64,000 nt of DNA from a virus (taxonomy: Duplodnaviria; Heunggongvirae; Uroviricota; Caudoviricetes), in IMG/VR virus record IMGVR_UViG_3300048599_000194, positions 175,177 through 239,176 of that record; one strand, 5' to 3'. The position numbers and the translations under genes are program-made. Of this stretch, positions 39,752 through 45,721 are shown piece by piece. Numbering within the stretch: the stretch's first letter is position 1; the number at the start of each line of letters is the position of its first letter. A model generated the notes under the pieces. It saw only the letters and a list, made by a program, of their open reading frames with translations, ran no database searches and was not told the origin of the DNA.

Positions 39752-39957
39752 TATTCTTCTCCGAACTTAGCCCGAGTCTGGGCCAGTGAATGTCCGACAA
39801 ATGAACAATCATCGAACTCCTCGCGCTTAGGGGAAAACAGAATATCGATGGCTTTTTCTTCTTCTTGGATGGTAAGCGGTTGCCATGCAGGGCGTTCCAC
39901 CTTTGCATTAGGATCCAAAATTTCCGTGAGTGTCACTGTCTGAAGTCCTTGGTACAT
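39751..39957 (-). CDS. Hypothetical protein
   Basis: GGAGG RBS; promoter 39978. Confidence 0.75.
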   Translation of the reverse strand: MYQGLQTVTLTEILDPNAKVERPAWQPLTIQEEEKAIDILFSPKREEFDDCSFVGHSLAQTRAKFGEE

Positions 39958-39977
39958 GATTACCTCCTGTTCAGAAG

Positions 39978-40007
39978 AAGATACGCCATTTGATTAGATT
40001 AGTCAAC
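39978..40007 (-). promoter_or_regulatory. sigma70-type early promoter
   Basis: GTTGAC-N17-GTATCTT. Confidence 0.85.
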
Positions 40008-40414
40008 TAGAAAGAAAATACAATTTCTTCTTTCTCGTCTTTTTTTGATTTCAGCTTAATTGAGAATCCAAGCCTCTTCAGATTCTTGGAATAATCCCTA
40101 TACGAATCAGCAATGAAGAGATTTCGATTAGGAACTAGAGAACGATACCAGAGAATATCCAAAAAGAGATTCGCTTGATAGCATTCCTGCCGACATTCAA
40201 TTACAATGATCTTGACATTACGCCTAAACTTCGGAAGGAGCTTCAAAAATAGTGCATCTAGATCTTCAACATGATGAAGCACATTTCGGAATCTAATCTT
40301 ATTGATCGAATTATCCGGAATCTCTTCAATGCTATTGAAGGTGCAATTGGCTCCAGCGTCTAGGGTTGCCCACCCTTTGGCTGGAGCAAAGCCTGATCCG
40401 AAGTCCAGTTTCAT
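40007..40414 (-). CDS. Class I SAM-dependent methyltransferase-like protein
   Basis: MKLDFGSG motif I, NVLHHVED; ATGA-coupled to the radical SAM gene. Confidence 0.7.
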   Translation of the reverse strand: MKLDFGSGFAPAKGWATLDAGANCTFNSIEEIPDNSINKIRFRNVLHHVEDLDALFLKLLPKFRRNVKIIVIECRQECYQANLFLDILWYRSLVPNRNLFIADSYRDYSKNLKRLGFSIKLKSKKDEKEEIVFSF

Positions 40415-41154
40415 TTGCAGTTCAGGTCGAGGTTGCCAATCTTCTTGCAATAGTGCTCCCAGCGGCTGAACACTCCGACCGGAGTGATAATCATGTCAGT
40501 GGCGTCATAGCCCTTGTAGGCCCCGAAAACGCCAAACTGATGCCCTTCCCACTCGTAGTCGAAGAAATTGCAACCATCGTCCTTGATCTTGGTCGCTGGG
40601 AGCTTCTCCTCGAAATCGAATTCACCATAACGACCCATGAGGTCTTCACAGACCACCGCATAGAATCCATCGGTGAGGATATGCTTGAGAATCTGAACAA
40701 GTGCATCTCCATTGGATTCATTGCACTTGGGAATGTTGATGCGAGTATTAGGAATGTACTTGCGGCACATAAGCGCCTGTTCCCGACGAGCCAAATACAT
40801 GTCCAAGGAGGAAATGGAAATGGCAACTTCACTTAGACCTGCATCTGCATAGCTAGAGATTCGCTTCTCATCAAGAAGAATTCCATTCGTGACAAGGCAA
40901 ACATCTTCCTCGACATTCTCCCGAGTCAGCTTGATGTACTCGGGGAGATTCTTGAGAATAGTCGATTCACCACCCATGATAGTCGCTCGCTTCATCTTTC
41001 GACCGCAACGACGGAAGGTGTCTCGCATGAGATCCATATCCAAAATTAGACGAGGATCCTTATTCGGCTGATAGCAGAAGTAGCAATTAGGTTGCATGTT
41101 GCAATAAAGATTGGTGATAATGCGGTAACGGAAATACTGATCCTTGATTGCCAT
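40411..41154 (-). CDS. Radical SAM enzyme (atypical CX5CX2C)
   Basis: YCNMQPNCYFC, TIMGGES, CLVTNG. Confidence 0.85.
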   Translation of the reverse strand: MAIKDQYFRYRIITNLYCNMQPNCYFCYQPNKDPRLILDMDLMRDTFRRCGRKMKRATIMGGESTILKNLPEYIKLTRENVEEDVCLVTNGILLDEKRISSYADAGLSEVAISISSLDMYLARREQALMCRKYIPNTRINIPKCNESNGDALVQILKHILTDGFYAVVCEDLMGRYGEFDFEEKLPATKIKDDGCNFFDYEWEGHQFGVFGAYKGYDATDMIITPVGVFSRWEHYCKKIGNLDLNCK

Positions 41155-41156
41155 GA

Positions 41157-41492
41157 TTATTTACCCCCTTCAACAAGTTCACCCGTTTCAGTGGAATAAA
41201 CAGGTAGCGAATCCCATCCATTAATAGTCAGTTTAACAAGACGGCTATATTTCAGCCCACCTGGAACGTGACTCCACATATGCTCTCTAACTCCAAAGCA
41301 AATTTCCTTTTCAGTGTTGTGTACTTCGGAAAGAACATAACGAGGATTGTCGATGATTTCCTGAACTTCACTGGTTCGTGAAATTCGACCAATGAGGTTG
41401 TAGTATTCGCTGTAGACCACATCTCCGACCTTCAACCCTTGATCTGGAAGTCGCGAATTCAACTTAATCTTGTTGAAGATTTCATCTACCAT
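41157..41492 (-). CDS. Hypothetical protein
   Basis: Operonic with the radical SAM gene. Confidence 0.7.
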   Translation of the reverse strand: MVDEIFNKIKLNSRLPDQGLKVGDVVYSEYYNLIGRISRTSEVQEIIDNPRYVLSEVHNTEKEICFGVREHMWSHVPGGLKYSRLVKLTINGWDSLPVYSTETGELVEGGK

Positions 41493-41494
41493 GA

Positions 41495-41719
41495 TTACTT
41501 TCCCTCCGTAGACTTCATAGCCTCGACTTCAAGTTCATACTGGAGAGTCAATTCCTCGTGAATCTCCGTTGCCTTGCGAGCGAGTAGGGGGATCGAGACT
41601 TCGGCCATGTGGCAATTCACGATCTTGATGTTGTTCGGATCAAGCCGAATAGAATCAAGAATTCGATTGAAATTCTCGATTTTCTCGTTTAGCTTGGTTC
41701 GGTCGGGTGCGTCCATCAT
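41495..41719 (-). CDS. Hypothetical protein
   Basis: GGGAGG RBS; promoter 41745. Confidence 0.7.
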   Translation of the reverse strand: MMDAPDRTKLNEKIENFNRILDSIRLDPNNIKIVNCHMAEVSIPLLARKATEIHEELTLQYELEVEAMKSTEGK

Positions 41720-41744
41720 TGCCTCCCTGTTTAGGTTCAACAAT

Positions 41745-41774
41745 AAGATACGCCATCTCGTTTTACTTGTCTAC
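41745..41774 (-). promoter_or_regulatory. sigma70-type early promoter
   Basis: GTAGAC-N17-GTATCTT. Confidence 0.85.
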
Positions 41775-41896
41775 TTCTTTATCTTTCTTCTTCATATTCT
41801 TCACGGTATCTGCACATGATTCGCCTCCCCAGAGATCACCGTATGCGCAGTCCGCTGATTTTGCTTTGCAATTGGAACAAACGGGATGATATTTAC

Positions 41897-42088
41897 TCAT
41901 GATTTGCCTTTCCGTAGTCTTTTCAATTTATCGTCAGTTCGATCAATGATCTCAATTCCTACAGATTCCAATTCACCTTCATTTAAGAAATGATCAACCA
42001 ATAAATCTCGAACAGAATCCATCTTCATATCTTTTGGAATACTAAGATGATAATCACATTCTAATCTAACATGAATTTCACGATTCAT
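41897..42088 (-). CDS. Hypothetical protein
   Basis: 63 aa. Confidence 0.65.
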   Translation of the reverse strand: MNREIHVRLECDYHLSIPKDMKMDSVRDLLVDHFLNEGELESVGIEIIDRTDDKLKRLRKGKS

Positions 42089-42094
42089 AGTTAT

Positions 42095-42316
42095 TCAGTT
42101 ACCTAAGTATTCTGGTTCGAAATAGCATTGCTGATCATCAGGCACATGCCTTCTCCTGAGGAATTTGATAATCTTCATTTCAAATTCGTCGGGATCGTTC
42201 TTCAATTCCTCTTCAATCTTGAAGAACTTGATATTGCGCTTCCACATTTCATCTCGAATGTGGGGTGCAACTTCTTTGGAAGTATCAAACACTAGCATGT
42301 CACGGTAAACGTGCAT
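42095..42316 (-). CDS. Hypothetical protein (start reassigned to MHVYRD)
   Basis: AGGAG RBS. Confidence 0.65.
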   Translation of the reverse strand: MHVYRDMLVFDTSKEVAPHIRDEMWKRNIKFFKIEEELKNDPDEFEMKIIKFLRRRHVPDDQQCYFEPEYLGN

Positions 42317-42326
42317 ATACACTCCT

Positions 42327-42363
42327 AAAAGAAAAAAGGGCAAGTGAATTCCACTTACCCTTC
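42327..42363 (-). terminator. Intrinsic terminator after the AACGQL peptide gene
   Basis: AGGGTAAGTG-GAATT-CACTTGCCCT followed by TTTTTCTTTT. Confidence 0.8.
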
Positions 42364-42386
42364 TAGATTCATCTGAATCAGGGGGA

Positions 42387-42518
42387 TTAACCCTGCTCAT
42401 TCTCCGAGATAATGGCAAGCTGGCCGCATGCGGCTCCTGCCTGCACCTCGGCATTGGTGGCAACCGCCACGGCGAAATCGAATCCGGCGCTCTCCAGCTT
42501 CTGCTTGATGTCTTCCAT
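42387..42518 (-). CDS. 43-aa peptide equal to the C-terminal catalytic segment of RlmN/Cfr (AACGQL)
   Basis: MEDIKQKLESAGFDFAVAVATNAEVQAGAACGQLAIISENEQG; AAGGAG RBS; own promoter and terminator. Confidence 0.8.
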   Translation of the reverse strand: MEDIKQKLESAGFDFAVAVATNAEVQAGAACGQLAIISENEQG

Positions 42519-42567
42519 GTGCTCTCTCCTTGGTTTAGTGTGATGTCGGCGCATCGCCGTCTGGTAT

Positions 42568-42597
42568 AAGATACGATGCACTCGATATTTAGTCAAC
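42568..42597 (-). promoter_or_regulatory. sigma70-type early promoter dedicated to the AACGQL peptide
   Basis: GTTGAC-N17-GTATCTT. Confidence 0.85.
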
Positions 42598-42601
42598 AGT
42601 T

Positions 42602-43468
42602 TTAAGGTACAATCACAGGGCCATTAAAACCAACCTTCAGATGATCAATATCGAATACTAGATTCGAATCAGCCTTCGTCATGTCACAGTAATGCCTTGC
42701 GTACCATCGATTCAAATCCCCCTCATTATCAAAAGTCACATAATTTGCACAGAAGCAAGCATTTTTGTCATTGAATGTGCAAACTCGGCGAGTATTTTTC
42801 ATCTGATTGAGATTGATCTTCATGAAATCAACATGATTTGATCTACAATACTCATTCACCTTCATCAAACTCACAAAGCCATATTCATGGAATCCGAGTC
42901 GAGAATAATGATTGATGAAATCATACATGTCATTTTCATCATCAATATAACCCTTGATTAGATTACAAGATAGATGAATTTTATCCTTAATACATTGTTC
43001 AAGCCCTTTCAGTTCCATGTCACTCAGCACATCACATTGAAAAATTTCATAATTCTGAAATTCAATTCCATGCCGGGATAGAGCAAAAGAATTGAGATAT
43101 TCGAAATTGACGTGATGTAGATTGAAACCATTAGAATTTACGATTGTGAAAATATTTTCATCTAAGCTCTTAACCAATCGAAGGCACTCATTCAGAAGTT
43201 CCCATTGAAAGGTTGGTTCTCCGCCAGTGAAACTAATCTTATTGATCCGAACTTTCTTTTTCAGTTCATGCAGAACGTAATAAAATTTGTAGAAATCGAA
43301 ACTAGTCAAATTACGATTTCGGAATTCACAAAATTCACAAGCCGCATTGCAAGTATCTGTAAGTCGAACATATAGATTGACGTAATTATCTCCGTCAGGT
43401 TTCTGCTCGACTCCATTATATGTACATGGAATGATTTTCAGCGGGACTTCACACCCGAAGAGATTCAA
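42602..43468 (-). CDS. Radical SAM enzyme
   Basis: TDTCNAACEFC, ISFTGGEPT, IVNSNG; C-terminal CFC. Confidence 0.9.
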   Translation of the reverse strand: MNLFGCEVPLKIIPCTYNGVEQKPDGDNYVNLYVRLTDTCNAACEFCEFRNRNLTSFDFYKFYYVLHELKKKVRINKISFTGGEPTFQWELLNECLRLVKSLDENIFTIVNSNGFNLHHVNFEYLNSFALSRHGIEFQNYEIFQCDVLSDMELKGLEQCIKDKIHLSCNLIKGYIDDENDMYDFINHYSRLGFHEYGFVSLMKVNEYCRSNHVDFMKINLNQMKNTRRVCTFNDKNACFCANYVTFDNEGDLNRWYARHYCDMTKADSNLVFDIDHLKVGFNGPVIVP

Positions 43469-43819
43469 TTAGCACCGTCCATTGCTGGATTGATGATTCC
43501 CGCACGATCCAGTTGCAGGCTTACTCGGAGGAGGATCACCACATCCTCGATTATTCGTGCGGGTGTTAGAAGAGCCACAGCCGCCATCGGAACTGCCAAT
43601 GGTGTACGAGGACGTTTGCGATGTCTTATTGGCCTTCTTACTCTTCCTATCCACCCCTCCGGCGATCTCAACAACCATTTCATACACATCCTTACTGACC
43701 TGATCCAGGAGATAAAGACTATTCATCTTTTCGATGAATGCCTTATCTGGCTTTCCAGCCTTTCGATGGGTGGAAAGCGCCGAGATGTAGAAGTTGAGAG
43801 ATTCGAGATCTATGCTCAT
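43469..43819 (-). CDS. 116-aa protein with low-complexity Cys-Gly repeat tail (RiPP-precursor-like)
   Basis: Helical N-terminus, then GGCG, RGCG, GSCG and terminal GRC; coupled to both radical SAM neighbours. Confidence 0.75.
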   Translation of the reverse strand: MSIDLESLNFYISALSTHRKAGKPDKAFIEKMNSLYLLDQVSKDVYEMVVEIAGGVDRKSKKANKTSQTSSYTIGSSDGGCGSSNTRTNNRGCGDPPPSKPATGSCGNHQSSNGRC

Positions 43820-44610
43820 ACCAGATTCCTCGCTTCGATGATTCCCTTACCCATGTGGTTCGACTCCGAAATGTTATTCGGATTGATGGGCGAAATCTTG
43901 ATGAAGAAATACTGAGGGTCGAAGAACGTGCGGAGCTTTTCGATGTCGAAATCGGCCTCATCCACAAGTGTCATGTTGACAGTGGTCTTAAGATTCGACT
44001 GAGTACGAATCTGCCCGAGTTCTTCGATGGTGACCTTATGCTTGAAAGGAATGAGATCATTCCGCCGAGCATCGTCCAAAGAATGGAGCGAAACCTGGAG
44101 CGTGATGTTCCCCTTGATCCACGAATAGTCGGCATCCTTAATTCCGATGGTGGAAATATAGTGATGCGTGTTCGGATACTTTTCCGAAATAATGGAAATT
44201 GCCTTCTTGACCTCATCCACGTTCAGGAAGGTATCACCCATTCGAGTATAGTTGATCTTGAATTCCTTGGAATTCCGAGGATCTCGATCAGGATTCTTGG
44301 AGATAATGAATTCGACCTGTGCTACAATTTCATCGGAGGTCAGATTTCGGAACCTCTTGAGATTTCCAGTTGCGCAGAACTTGCATCGCACGGGGCACCC
44401 GCTCGCAACCGAAACGCCGATCATCCATCGTTCATCTCGATTCCCAAGATCAGCGCAGACCAGATCATTTTGCTTTCGGCCAATTGCATCCTTCGTATAG
44501 AATGGCAGGAAGGTGTCTGTCGTTTCCAGAGGAAAGCCATCTTCGGTGTGCAGAAGATAGACGGATCCGTTGGCGAAGTGCTTGCTGGTCTTTTCGGTCA
44601 GTGCGGTCAT
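43816..44610 (-). CDS. RlmN/Cfr-like radical SAM protein lacking both catalytic cysteines
   Basis: IGVSVASGCPVRCKFCATG, RNLTSDEIVAQV, RMGD, ISTIG, QVSLHS, SPINP; no Cys after the cluster motif; start at the ATG with AAGGAG RBS. Confidence 0.9.
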   Translation of the reverse strand: MTALTEKTSKHFANGSVYLLHTEDGFPLETTDTFLPFYTKDAIGRKQNDLVCADLGNRDERWMIGVSVASGCPVRCKFCATGNLKRFRNLTSDEIVAQVEFIISKNPDRDPRNSKEFKINYTRMGDTFLNVDEVKKAISIISEKYPNTHHYISTIGIKDADYSWIKGNITLQVSLHSLDDARRNDLIPFKHKVTIEELGQIRTQSNLKTTVNMTLVDEADFDIEKLRTFFDPQYFFIKISPINPNNISESNHMGKGIIEARNLV

Positions 44611-44640
44611 ATTGAGTCTCCTTGTTAGTGGTGTGTAAGT

Positions 44641-44670
44641 AAGATACGTCAATAAACGCAATGCGTCAAC
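44641..44670 (-). promoter_or_regulatory. sigma70-type early promoter of the radical SAM operon
   Basis: GTTGAC-N17-GTATCTT. Confidence 0.85.
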
Positions 44671-44675
44671 TTAGA

Positions 44676-44888
44676 TTAGTCGTAGATTTCCTTGTAGTAC
44701 ACTCCAAGGAGAATTTTATGCCCCATGAAATCAAAATAAATTCCACCTTCTTGAGTTTCTGTATCATATCCATTATACCAATTCTCTCGATAGGTCTTAA
44801 AGAAAATGGAAATGAAGAATCTAGAAAGTGCATTGAAATGATAAGTTACTGCTTCCATATCAAGACTGCCTGAAACGACGCGAATCAA
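44676..44888 (-). CDS. Hypothetical protein
   Basis: 70 aa; start uncertain. Confidence 0.55.
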   Translation of the reverse strand: MIRVVSGSLDMEAVTYHFNALSRFFISIFFKTYRENWYNGYDTETQEGGIYFDFMGHKILLGVYYKEIYD

Positions 44889-45108
44889 TCCAAATAACCT
44901 TTACGTCATTTAGAATCATCATATTCAATCCTTCGAGTGCATTGATCACCTCTGGAAATGGATGCTTGTTGAAGTCGATGAAAGTATGCTCCTCAAGATC
45001 ATCGTCAACTTCGACAATATCCTTGAATAGCATATCAATAAATGCCTTCGGAAGTGCCCCGCAAGTATGCCAGAAAAGAACCCGATACTTCATGATATTC
45101 TCCTTCAC
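44860..45108 (-). CDS. Hypothetical protein
   Basis: 82 aa. Confidence 0.7.
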   Translation of the reverse strand: MKENIMKYRVLFWHTCGALPKAFIDMLFKDIVEVDDDLEEHTFIDFNKHPFPEVINALEGLNMMILNDVKVIWIDSRRFRQS

Positions 45109-45268
45109 TCGAATTCTCGATTACAGATGTTACAAATTCGGAAACCATATCCGATATGGTCATATTCAGTGCAGTCATGCGAGCAACGATGAGTAAGCAT
45201 TTTCCAGGCTTGTTTAAGACTGCGAAACGTCAGCTTAATTCGATTCATATACGCACCTCCACGTCATG

Positions 45269-45298
45269 AAGATACTGAACATTTTTATAGAAGTCAAC
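45269..45298 (-). promoter_or_regulatory. sigma70-type early promoter
   Basis: GTTGAC-N17-GTATCTT. Confidence 0.85.
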
Positions 45299-45316
45299 TA
45301 GAACCTAGCAAAATGA

Positions 45317-45721
45317 TTGAAGTTGGCAATAAATAAAAGAATGACCAAATACATGTATAATTCAGCAATATATGAATCAAAAGAAAAATTCGAAGTAAAA
45401 GAAAATGAGTTTATGCTAGTATTAGATGGCGTAGTAATTTCAAAGTCTGGATTTAATATTGAGTCGTCGGATGAATTTTTCGATGAGCCATATGTGAGCC
45501 TATATGACGTTGAAACAGTGAAGAAATATAGAGGAAGAGGATATGCTCATGAATTGTTTAATCATATATTCGAATTTGTGAAGAATTCATTAGAGATAAA
45601 GATAATAACATTGATAGTATATAAAGAGAATATAAAGGCTATTAAATTGTATAATAGCTTGGGATTTGAAATCTTTATGGAATATGAAGATAGCTATTCA
45701 TTGGTTAAACATCTCATTTAA
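45317..45721 (+). CDS. GNAT-family acetyltransferase
   Basis: LYDVETVKKYRGRGYA (motif A), LIVYKENIKAIKLYNSLGF. Confidence 0.85.
   Translation: MKLAINKRMTKYMYNSAIYESKEKFEVKENEFMLVLDGVVISKSGFNIESSDEFFDEPYVSLYDVETVKKYRGRGYAHELFNHIFEFVKNSLEIKIITLIVYKENIKAIKLYNSLGFEIFMEYEDSYSLVKHLI

Follow-up and report, generated by a model that had tools for sequence, protein, structure and literature searches.

Background

To our knowledge, no class A radical S-adenosylmethionine (SAM) methylases other than RlmN and Cfr have been characterised, and in these two both mechanistic cysteines are held to be indispensable. RlmN (TIGR00048; PDB 3RFA, 4PL1, 5HR7 and 6FZ6) is the C2-methyltransferase of A2503 in 23S rRNA and of A37 in tRNA, and Cfr (TIGR04432; PDB 9P0P) is the C8-methyltransferase of 23S rRNA A2503. 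One cysteine (C355 in RlmN, C338 in Cfr) carries the methyl group, and the methylene radical adds to C2 or C8 of the adenine (PMC9692996; PMC2836569). The other (C118 in RlmN, C105 in Cfr) is the general base that triggers product release (PMC9692996; Cfr mutagenesis in PMC2836569) and is essential in both characterised enzymes (PMC9692996; PMC2836569). RlmN C118A and Cfr C105A are inactive and trap the Cys355-CH2-adenine crosslink (PMC9692996). Here we analyse a phage locus in which the second of these cysteines is absent and the first is located on a separate gene product. The locus lies in a 64,000-nucleotide stretch of DNA, hereafter the window (IMG/VR record IMGVR_UViG_3300048599_000194, positions 175,177 to 239,176), and comprises an RlmN/Cfr-like radical SAM core of 264 amino acids (aa; 43816..44610, minus strand) and a 43-aa peptide with the RlmN-tail module and a single cysteine, Cys31 (42387..42518, minus strand).

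Among the described systems, RlmN is the closest to the phage pair in both sequence and fold. Both have the GCxxxCxFCxTG cluster loop, the same strand order, the MGEP and SxHS blocks and a tail module that ends in AACGQL, and the peptide is predicted by modelling to occupy the position of the RlmN tail. Unlike RlmN, the phage tail is a separate gene product, Cys118 is replaced by glycine, the N-terminal helical domain is absent and an insert of about 20 residues is present. Cfr belongs to the same class A family (profile E 2.5e-19, Foldseek E 3e-7), but its C105 and C338 have no counterparts on the phage core chain and nothing points to antibiotic resistance. The closest mechanistic analogues are the C118A and C105A mutants (trapped crosslink, PDB 5HR7), which have the same no-thiol defect; however, these are engineered one-piece dead ends, whereas the phage state is natural, conserved and accompanied by a detachable cysteine carrier. 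One-piece phage mini-RlmN proteins (e.g. the 319-aa protein of Stenotrophomonas phage BUCTxx99, P0187 and P0244) are likewise short, phage-borne and devoid of the N-terminal domain, with 28% profile-level identity over the whole core. They differ from the split enzyme in having both cysteines (VICCS, GGGCGQL) on one chain, and some are located among tRNA genes. Ada/MGMT-type suicide carriers, in which a protein cysteine is used once per one-carbon unit, offer an analogy only, since their fold and chemistry are unrelated and they accept alkyl groups rather than donate radical methylenes. No paper on a split or phage RlmN-like enzyme was found in full-text literature searches, and database labels of the core read either 'hypothetical' or '23S rRNA methyltransferase'.

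The core protein is RlmN-like and lacks both mechanistic cysteines

Analysis of the core revealed only four cysteines (C51, C72, C76 and C79). C72, C76 and C79 form the CxxxCxxC cluster motif (CPVRCKFC), no cysteine follows this triad and the chain ends 20 residues past SPINP, before the RlmN tail. The open reading frame (ORF) and the HMMER alignment thus agree with a first-pass annotation of this DNA, made from the letters alone, which had described a truncated RlmN core without cysteine after CxxxCxxC. The same annotation had placed a glycine at the Cys118 position, and this also holds: residue 65, seven before C72, is glycine (MIGVSVASGC), and a HMMER comparison against PDB sequences aligned it with the RlmN C118 position, which is alanine in the C118A structures 4PL1 and 5HR6.

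Comparison with NCBIfam, a check the annotation had proposed, gave RlmN/Cfr models as all of the top eight matches, each far under its cutoff; the best, TIGR00048 (RlmN), scored 74.4 bits against an equivalog cutoff of 290, and TIGR04432 (Cfr) 47.8 bits against 550. A profile of 34 family members retrieved only RlmN and Cfr from the PDB (E from 5e-24 for RlmN to 2.5e-19 for Cfr). The AlphaFold (AF2) model of the core, with a predicted local distance difference test score (pLDDT) of 91.6, returned RlmN/Cfr as its top 11 Foldseek matches (E 8e-13 to 3e-7), the next fold being pyruvate formate-lyase (PFL) activase at 3e-4. The protein is thus RlmN/Cfr-like, having the CX3CX2C motif in an RlmN-type context (GCPVRCKFCATG) and RlmN/Cfr as its nearest sequences and folds. 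All cluster- and SAM-binding residues that are invariant in canonical relatives (GCxxxCxFC, the MGEP block, SxHS and R183) are retained.

The N-terminal helical accessory/RNA-binding domain of RlmN (residues 1 to about 60) is absent from the core, in which only the beta-extension is kept; alignments begin at position 101 of TIGR00048 and at residues 95-117 of the PDB chains. Family members share a conserved insert, about 20 residues long (TDTFLPFYTKDAIGRKQN...), on the N-terminal side of the strand with the C118 position. No RRE or SPASM/twitch domain was detected in the core by Pfam or NCBIfam, and net charge and isoelectric point, compared between cores and canonical relatives, gave no discrimination between an RNA-binding and a non-RNA enzyme.

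The peptide corresponds to the missing tail

The methyl-carrier motif AACGQL (RlmN C355/Cfr C338) was found on the 43-aa product and not on the core chain. The peptide consists of a helix, a beta-strand (FDFAVAVA) and a loop (GAACGQLAII) that contains Cys31; it is acidic, and its variation is confined to the last few residues. Profile-profile alignment (hhalign) of 21 peptides with the tails of 16 canonical one-piece relatives gave a probability of 91.5% (E 8.6e-7), with the peptide profile covering columns 254-291 of the 319 columns of the canonical mini-RlmN and CGQL falling on CGQL. In the same alignment the core profile spans columns 9-247 (E 3e-58), and the two products therefore tile one canonical enzyme. 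The peptide profile alone found no RlmN match among PDB sequences at E up to 10 because the query is too short; the relation became visible by profile-profile comparison alone. The ATG of the peptide gene is 1297 nucleotides (nt) 3' of the core stop codon, with two intact genes in between, in line with the earlier reading of this ORF as the missing RlmN tail about 1.3 kb downstream.

Co-folding of both chains, also proposed with the first-pass annotation, is consistent with an RlmN-like assembly. A model of the core with a 4Fe-4S cluster, SAM and the peptide reached an interaction prediction score from aligned errors (ipSAE) of 0.80 in three runs, compared with 0.00 for the best of three controls; 58 of 80 solved complexes and 2 of 110 mismatched pairs attain the mark used for this score. 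The runs shared at least 34% of contacts, with a partner pLDDT of at least 68. In the model, residues 13-16 of the peptide strand pair with the last strand of the core (235-239), and residues 30-36, around Cys31, contact core residues 70-71, 79-85 and 123-124, which belong to the cluster loop and the SAM-binding MGE block; the cysteine loop is thus predicted at the cluster/SAM site. Halves of a split gene may pass such a test through likeness to solved RlmN, so the model shows an RlmN-like assembly and not measured binding. Tiling and complex model together support the annotation's proposal of a naturally split enzyme whose methyl-carrier loop is supplied in trans, and we consider it very probable that this two-piece enzyme is real. 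A link between core and peptide through frameshifting, read-through or splicing was considered and rejected, as the genes are 1.3 kb apart with two intact genes between them.

The resolving cysteine is missing across the family

Among 34 diverse cores, the three cluster ligands are the only invariant cysteines. The C118-equivalent position is glycine in at least 90% of these cores and never cysteine, so that the absence of the resolving cysteine, first proposed from the window, extends to the family. No conserved family-specific Cys, His, Asp, Glu or Tyr that could act as a substitute base was found among the same 34 cores. R123, K208 and K238, the ionisable residues whose conservation is specific to this family, fall within the peptide interface predicted by the complex model.

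The association between the two cysteines was tallied in 50%-identity representatives with a near-complete core. Where the C118-equivalent is present, the tail cysteine is fused in 21 of 24 representatives. Of the 59 without it, 44 have no tail in cis, two have the tail at the N-terminus and 13 have a fused tail, the last belonging to the bacterial one-piece 'CDAG' family (e.g. P0175 and P0268). The split thus goes with the loss of C118, but unsplit enzymes can lack C118 as well. For the distant C118-less bacterial families P0176 and P0200, the surrounding genes were uninformative.

Distribution and gene order of the pair

A word-indexed protein search with the core retrieved 2008 clusters at E up to 1e-5, and the best 120 of these contain proteins of 260-303 aa (all but six 260-268 aa) with at least 67% identity; an exhaustive HMMER search gave 2566 representatives of the core family. 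Co-occurrence of core and peptide, which the first-pass annotation had named as a check, was found to be nearly complete: the peptide gene is downstream and on the same strand in 78 of 80 viral loci. The two exceptions are a locus cut by the contig end (L005) and one rearranged past a truncated accessory gene (L038). Homologues that lack the peptide or keep another conserved cysteine, either of which would have spoken against that annotation, are thus essentially not seen. When the distant members P0127 and P0161 were each used alone to scan viral contigs, zero and one loci were found, respectively.

Three layouts were observed. The peptide gene begins 10-100 nt past the core in 31 loci. In 43 loci, many of which are near-identical crAss-like genomes from one sample, the order is core, 255-aa radical SAM protein, 148-aa methyltransferase and peptide. 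The third order, that of the window, is core, Cys-rich protein, radical SAM protein and peptide, and is shared with L003, L004, L006, L023 and, in part, L005. Five complete or near-complete genomes with the adjacent layout contain no homologue of the radical SAM protein of the second layout, in a search in which the positive control worked; core and peptide therefore represent the minimal system.

Both genes are present in eight cultured phages whose hosts fall into four groups (Bacteroides, Moorella, Vibrio and the enterobacteria Yersinia and Pectobacterium), namely Kehishuvirus 'tikkala', Moorella phage MTATph1, Yersinia phage P778, Vibrio phage D479 and the Pectobacterium phages Arno18, Arno162, Wc4 and Wc4-1. 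The family also occurs in crAss-like gut phages and giant phages and is abundant in the human gut virome. The peptide has a dN/dS of about 0.10 where dS is unsaturated.

Fused, tandem and intein-containing forms

Fusions between the parts were identified in a few relatives. In P0126, which occurs on two contigs, the N-terminus of the core carries the peptide module as a fusion, so that the order of the parts is circularly permuted with respect to RlmN; P0142 is a single chain of peptide, core and a second radical SAM domain; and P0273, encoded in a 500-kb phage by the last gene of an operon of core, radical SAM protein, 75-aa protein and radical SAM protein, is a methyltransferase-peptide fusion whose methyltransferase part is a homologue of the 135-aa protein of the window described below. 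These three fusions are Rosetta-stone links between the parts. A search for longer proteins with the peptide found a single fusion. Vibrio phage D479 (L086, 4282-4563) encodes two whole peptide modules in tandem in one ORF (...GFDAGLAIATDAEV.AGAACGQMAIL twice).

In at least 21 clusters (P0124 and P0274-P0294 among the relatives) the CxxxCxxC motif of the core is interrupted by an intein with LAGLIDADG domains, and in P0278 a GIY-YIG homing endonuclease ORF is joined upstream of the core. Longer forms of the core were accordingly rejected as a clue to the substrate, as they represent inteins or the GIY-YIG endonuclease fusion.

Expression signals

The window comes from a phage genome of 306 kb that has terminal repeats, and nearly all genes of the window are on the minus strand, as are all features given below unless stated otherwise. 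A promoter-like site, TTGACG-N17-TATCTT, was found by motif scan 5' of the core gene (44641..44669), and a second copy, dedicated to the peptide gene, at 42568..42596. The window contains 18 copies of the motif TTGAC[GT]-N17-TATCTT, every one of them on the minus strand, compared with an expected 0.04, and the motif is therefore regarded as a genuine promoter class of the phage. Its fuller form, TTGAC[GT]-N15-[ACT]G-TATCTT (copies, for example, at 45297, 44669, 42596, 40006 and 39120), is evidently an early or middle promoter consensus. The peptide promoter is located at the same distance 5' of the peptide gene in L003, L004 and L006. An AAGGAGA Shine-Dalgarno sequence precedes the ATG of both core and peptide by 6 nt, and an intrinsic terminator-like hairpin of 14 pairs followed by a T-run (42334..42364) lies 23 nt past the peptide stop codon.

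The first-pass annotation had assigned the peptide its own promoter, ribosome-binding site and terminator, all of which were recovered here, and had regarded it as a dedicated monocistronic unit. The unit is, however, not strictly monocistronic: no terminator was found between core and peptide in the window, and the peptide is therefore also the last gene of the core operon.

Matches among sequencing runs were to contigs only. Error-free pieces of 151 nt over 42310-42460 and 42358-42508 were present in two wastewater RNA-type libraries; since DNA carry-over is possible, these are not proof of transcription. An Rfam scan of 39800-45400 gave no RNA family. The 5' leader of the peptide (42519-42567) can fold a short GC hairpin (CGGCG-ATG-CGCCG), which may be a stabilising 5' hairpin, and the leaders of L003 and L006 contain self-complementary stretches of different sequence at the same place.

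Accessory genes and genomic neighbourhood

The two genes between core and peptide form an inserted cassette. The first encodes a 116-aa protein (43469..43819) with a helical N-terminal half and a Gly/Ser/Cys-rich tail containing three x-C-G motifs and a terminal cysteine; its ATG overlaps the core stop codon (ATGA), homologues occupy the same place in L003-L006, and no Pfam, NCBIfam or PHROG match was found. The second encodes a 288-aa radical SAM protein (42602..43468; PF04055, 1.5e-9) with the motif CNAACEFC and extra C-terminal cysteines. Its best NCBIfam matches are YydG-type epimerase, MoaA and HxsC, all far under cutoff; its gene is AT-richer than the neighbours and has homologues in L003, L004, L006 and L023. 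In L023 the cassette radical SAM gene seems frameshifted and is preceded by a gene for a different, 127-aa protein with a Cys-rich tail. The cassette looks like a precursor/maturase pair resembling those of ribosomally synthesised and post-translationally modified peptides (RiPPs), or like a second cysteine carrier for the core.

Homologues of the radical SAM protein and methyltransferase of the second layout are located in the window 1.2 kb further downstream (41154-40007). These are a 247-aa viperin/MoaA-like radical SAM protein with CX5CX2C (40411..41154), an accessory partner whose homologue is between core and peptide in about half of the related loci, and a 135-aa class I methyltransferase-like protein (40007..40414) encoded by a gene coupled to it. 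Such a viperin/MoaA-like radical SAM protein and minimal class I methyltransferase travel with the split enzyme in about half of the loci, and the spacing of the first two cluster cysteines of the former varies from CX5C in the window to CX11C in the crAss-like L012 (4789-5977) and CX3C in L097 (3286-4594). A 45-aa Cys-rich ORF (41763-41900) is found past the peptide terminator and before the third radical SAM gene and has about 62% identity to counterparts in the corresponding position of L004 and L006. Just upstream of the cluster is a GNAT acetyltransferase gene (45317-45721, plus strand), the only clear plus-strand gene in that part.

Clustering of neighbours showed that, accessory genes aside, no gene is beside the pair in more than three of 21 non-redundant loci. 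Individual loci contain NAMPT translationally coupled upstream of the pair and a PARP-like gene downstream (L009), NAPRTase upstream (L034), Nudix and NAMPT directly downstream (L097), a Tad2-like gene directly downstream (L065), RtcB downstream (L027 and L076) or an SPFH protein upstream (L010 and Kehishuvirus). Upstream of a distant pair (47% identity) in L089, a 205-aa protein (2100-2714) has a KxDG-type motif (FDKLDGRN) reminiscent of RNA/DNA ligases, with no Pfam match on record. These neighbour regions are variable and accessory, with a counter-defence flavour, and provide association only. They would fit an RNA target, given RtcB and the location of canonical phage versions among tRNA genes, or an adenine-nucleotide target, given Tad2 and the salvage of nicotinamide adenine dinucleotide (NAD).

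Proposed reaction and alternative explanations

The observed homology, split, conservation, docking model and expression signals describe what is very probably a self-contained phage module in which two polypeptides together make up a class A (RlmN/Cfr-type) radical SAM enzyme. In the proposed reaction the 264-aa core would bind a 4Fe-4S cluster and SAM, and the 43-aa peptide would dock as the missing C-terminal element, its beta-strand joining the last strand of the core (235-239) and its loop bringing Cys31 close to the cluster/SAM site. Following the RlmN precedent, one SAM would S-methylate Cys31, a 5'-deoxyadenosyl radical generated from a second SAM would convert it into a Cys-S-CH2 radical, and this radical would add to an sp2 carbon of an adenine-type acceptor. 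As the general-base cysteine is replaced by glycine and no conserved substitute is visible, the reaction may end in a peptide-S-CH2-acceptor adduct; the separate small peptide would then allow the core to leave and reload, with the peptide spent stoichiometrically. Candidate acceptors are RNA (tRNA or rRNA) or an NAD- or signal-type adenine nucleotide. We assign a probability of roughly 0.4 to a stoichiometric adduct as the outcome. It would account for the joint occurrence of gene fission and C118 loss, for the extra promoter and for the tandem peptide. The extra peptide promoter of L003, L004 and L006 and the tandem module of D479 are hints of stoichiometric use.

Several observations weigh against the adduct as end product. 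We infer the S-methylation, the radical addition, the persistence of the adduct and its target by analogy. Fused forms would attach the whole enzyme to the target or be single-turnover, and, rare as they are, they argue against an obligate free, consumable peptide. The RlmN RNA-binding domain is absent from the core, and most lineages show no recognisable promoter dedicated to the peptide, whose gene simply closes the operon. The C118-less one-piece bacterial enzymes may have another way of resolving the adduct, and glycine at the C118 position leaves space for water or a substrate group as base. A rival explanation, which we regard as possible and somewhat less probable than the adduct, is that the same two-piece enzyme is a true catalytic C-methyltransferase, forming for example 2-methyladenosine (m2A) or 8-methyladenosine (m8A) in tRNA, rRNA or a nucleotide. 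The adduct would then be resolved without Cys118, with water, a group on the substrate or a so far unrecognised residue in its place; the peptide would be a stable, regenerated subunit and the fission would be neutral. Retention of all canonical cluster/SAM-binding residues is in keeping with this, the fusion of peptide and core in P0126 and P0142 agrees with a 1:1 subunit, and one-piece bacterial relatives have the tail cysteine and no C118; the canonical one-piece version among tRNA genes in BUCTxx99 and the RtcB genes near the pair in L027 and L076 also fit such an enzyme. However, C118/C105 is essential in both characterised enzymes (PMC9692996; PMC2836569), the family shows no specific conserved Cys, His, Asp, Glu or Tyr as a substitute, and the coupling of split and C118 loss, the doubled peptide module and the extra promoter would be left unexplained. 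With no conserved substitute for Cys118, crosslinking of the peptide to its target stays plausible.

A RiPP-like role, which the first-pass annotation had offered as an alternative, was judged improbable. Under it the peptide would be a precursor whose cysteine is modified by the core, perhaps together with the accessory radical SAM protein and methyltransferase, and the modified peptide would be the product. The small separate gene, always downstream of radical SAM genes, the repeated insertion of accessory radical SAM, methyltransferase and Cys-rich small proteins beside the peptide and the tandem module in D479 are in keeping with this. The conserved part of the peptide is, however, the strand and loop of the RlmN tail, that is, structural elements and not a variable core peptide; the peptide is acidic and varies only in its last few residues, the core is free of RRE and SPASM domains, protease and exporter genes are absent from the vicinity, and the pair occurs alone, without tailoring genes, in 31 loci and five complete genomes. 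The chance that the split is an artefact or decay, through a frameshifted or broken rlmN gene or an assembly error, is close to nil: beyond the first impression of a truncated RlmN nothing favours it, and it is refuted by the conservation data. The core ends at a common point in more than 2000 clusters of 260-265 aa, the peptide is 1.3 kb away behind two intact genes and under purifying selection (dN/dS about 0.10), the same arrangement recurs in complete genomes of cultured phages from four host groups, and at least 21 clusters retain an intein within the cluster motif.

Implications

The role of the pair is likely host takeover or counter-defence. A more specific form of the adduct proposal, in which the detachable 4.5-kDa cysteine peptide is a one-shot methylene donor that the core grafts through S-CH2 onto an adenine before reloading, is put forward tentatively and is rather doubtful. 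The adenine could belong to host RNA or to an immune signal, either NAD-derived or oligoadenylate, and the reaction would constitute a new peptide-nucleobase conjugation.

In a phage family of more than 2000 protein clusters, one mechanistic cysteine has been removed and the other moved onto a separate peptide. The presence of the pair in cultured phages of easily grown hosts makes the question of its reaction directly testable. Either the textbook resolution step can be achieved otherwise, or phages form covalent peptide-nucleobase adducts, and both would be new enzymology; if the peptide is a one-shot donor, it would represent a new enzymatic peptide-nucleobase conjugation used for host takeover or covalent counter-defence.

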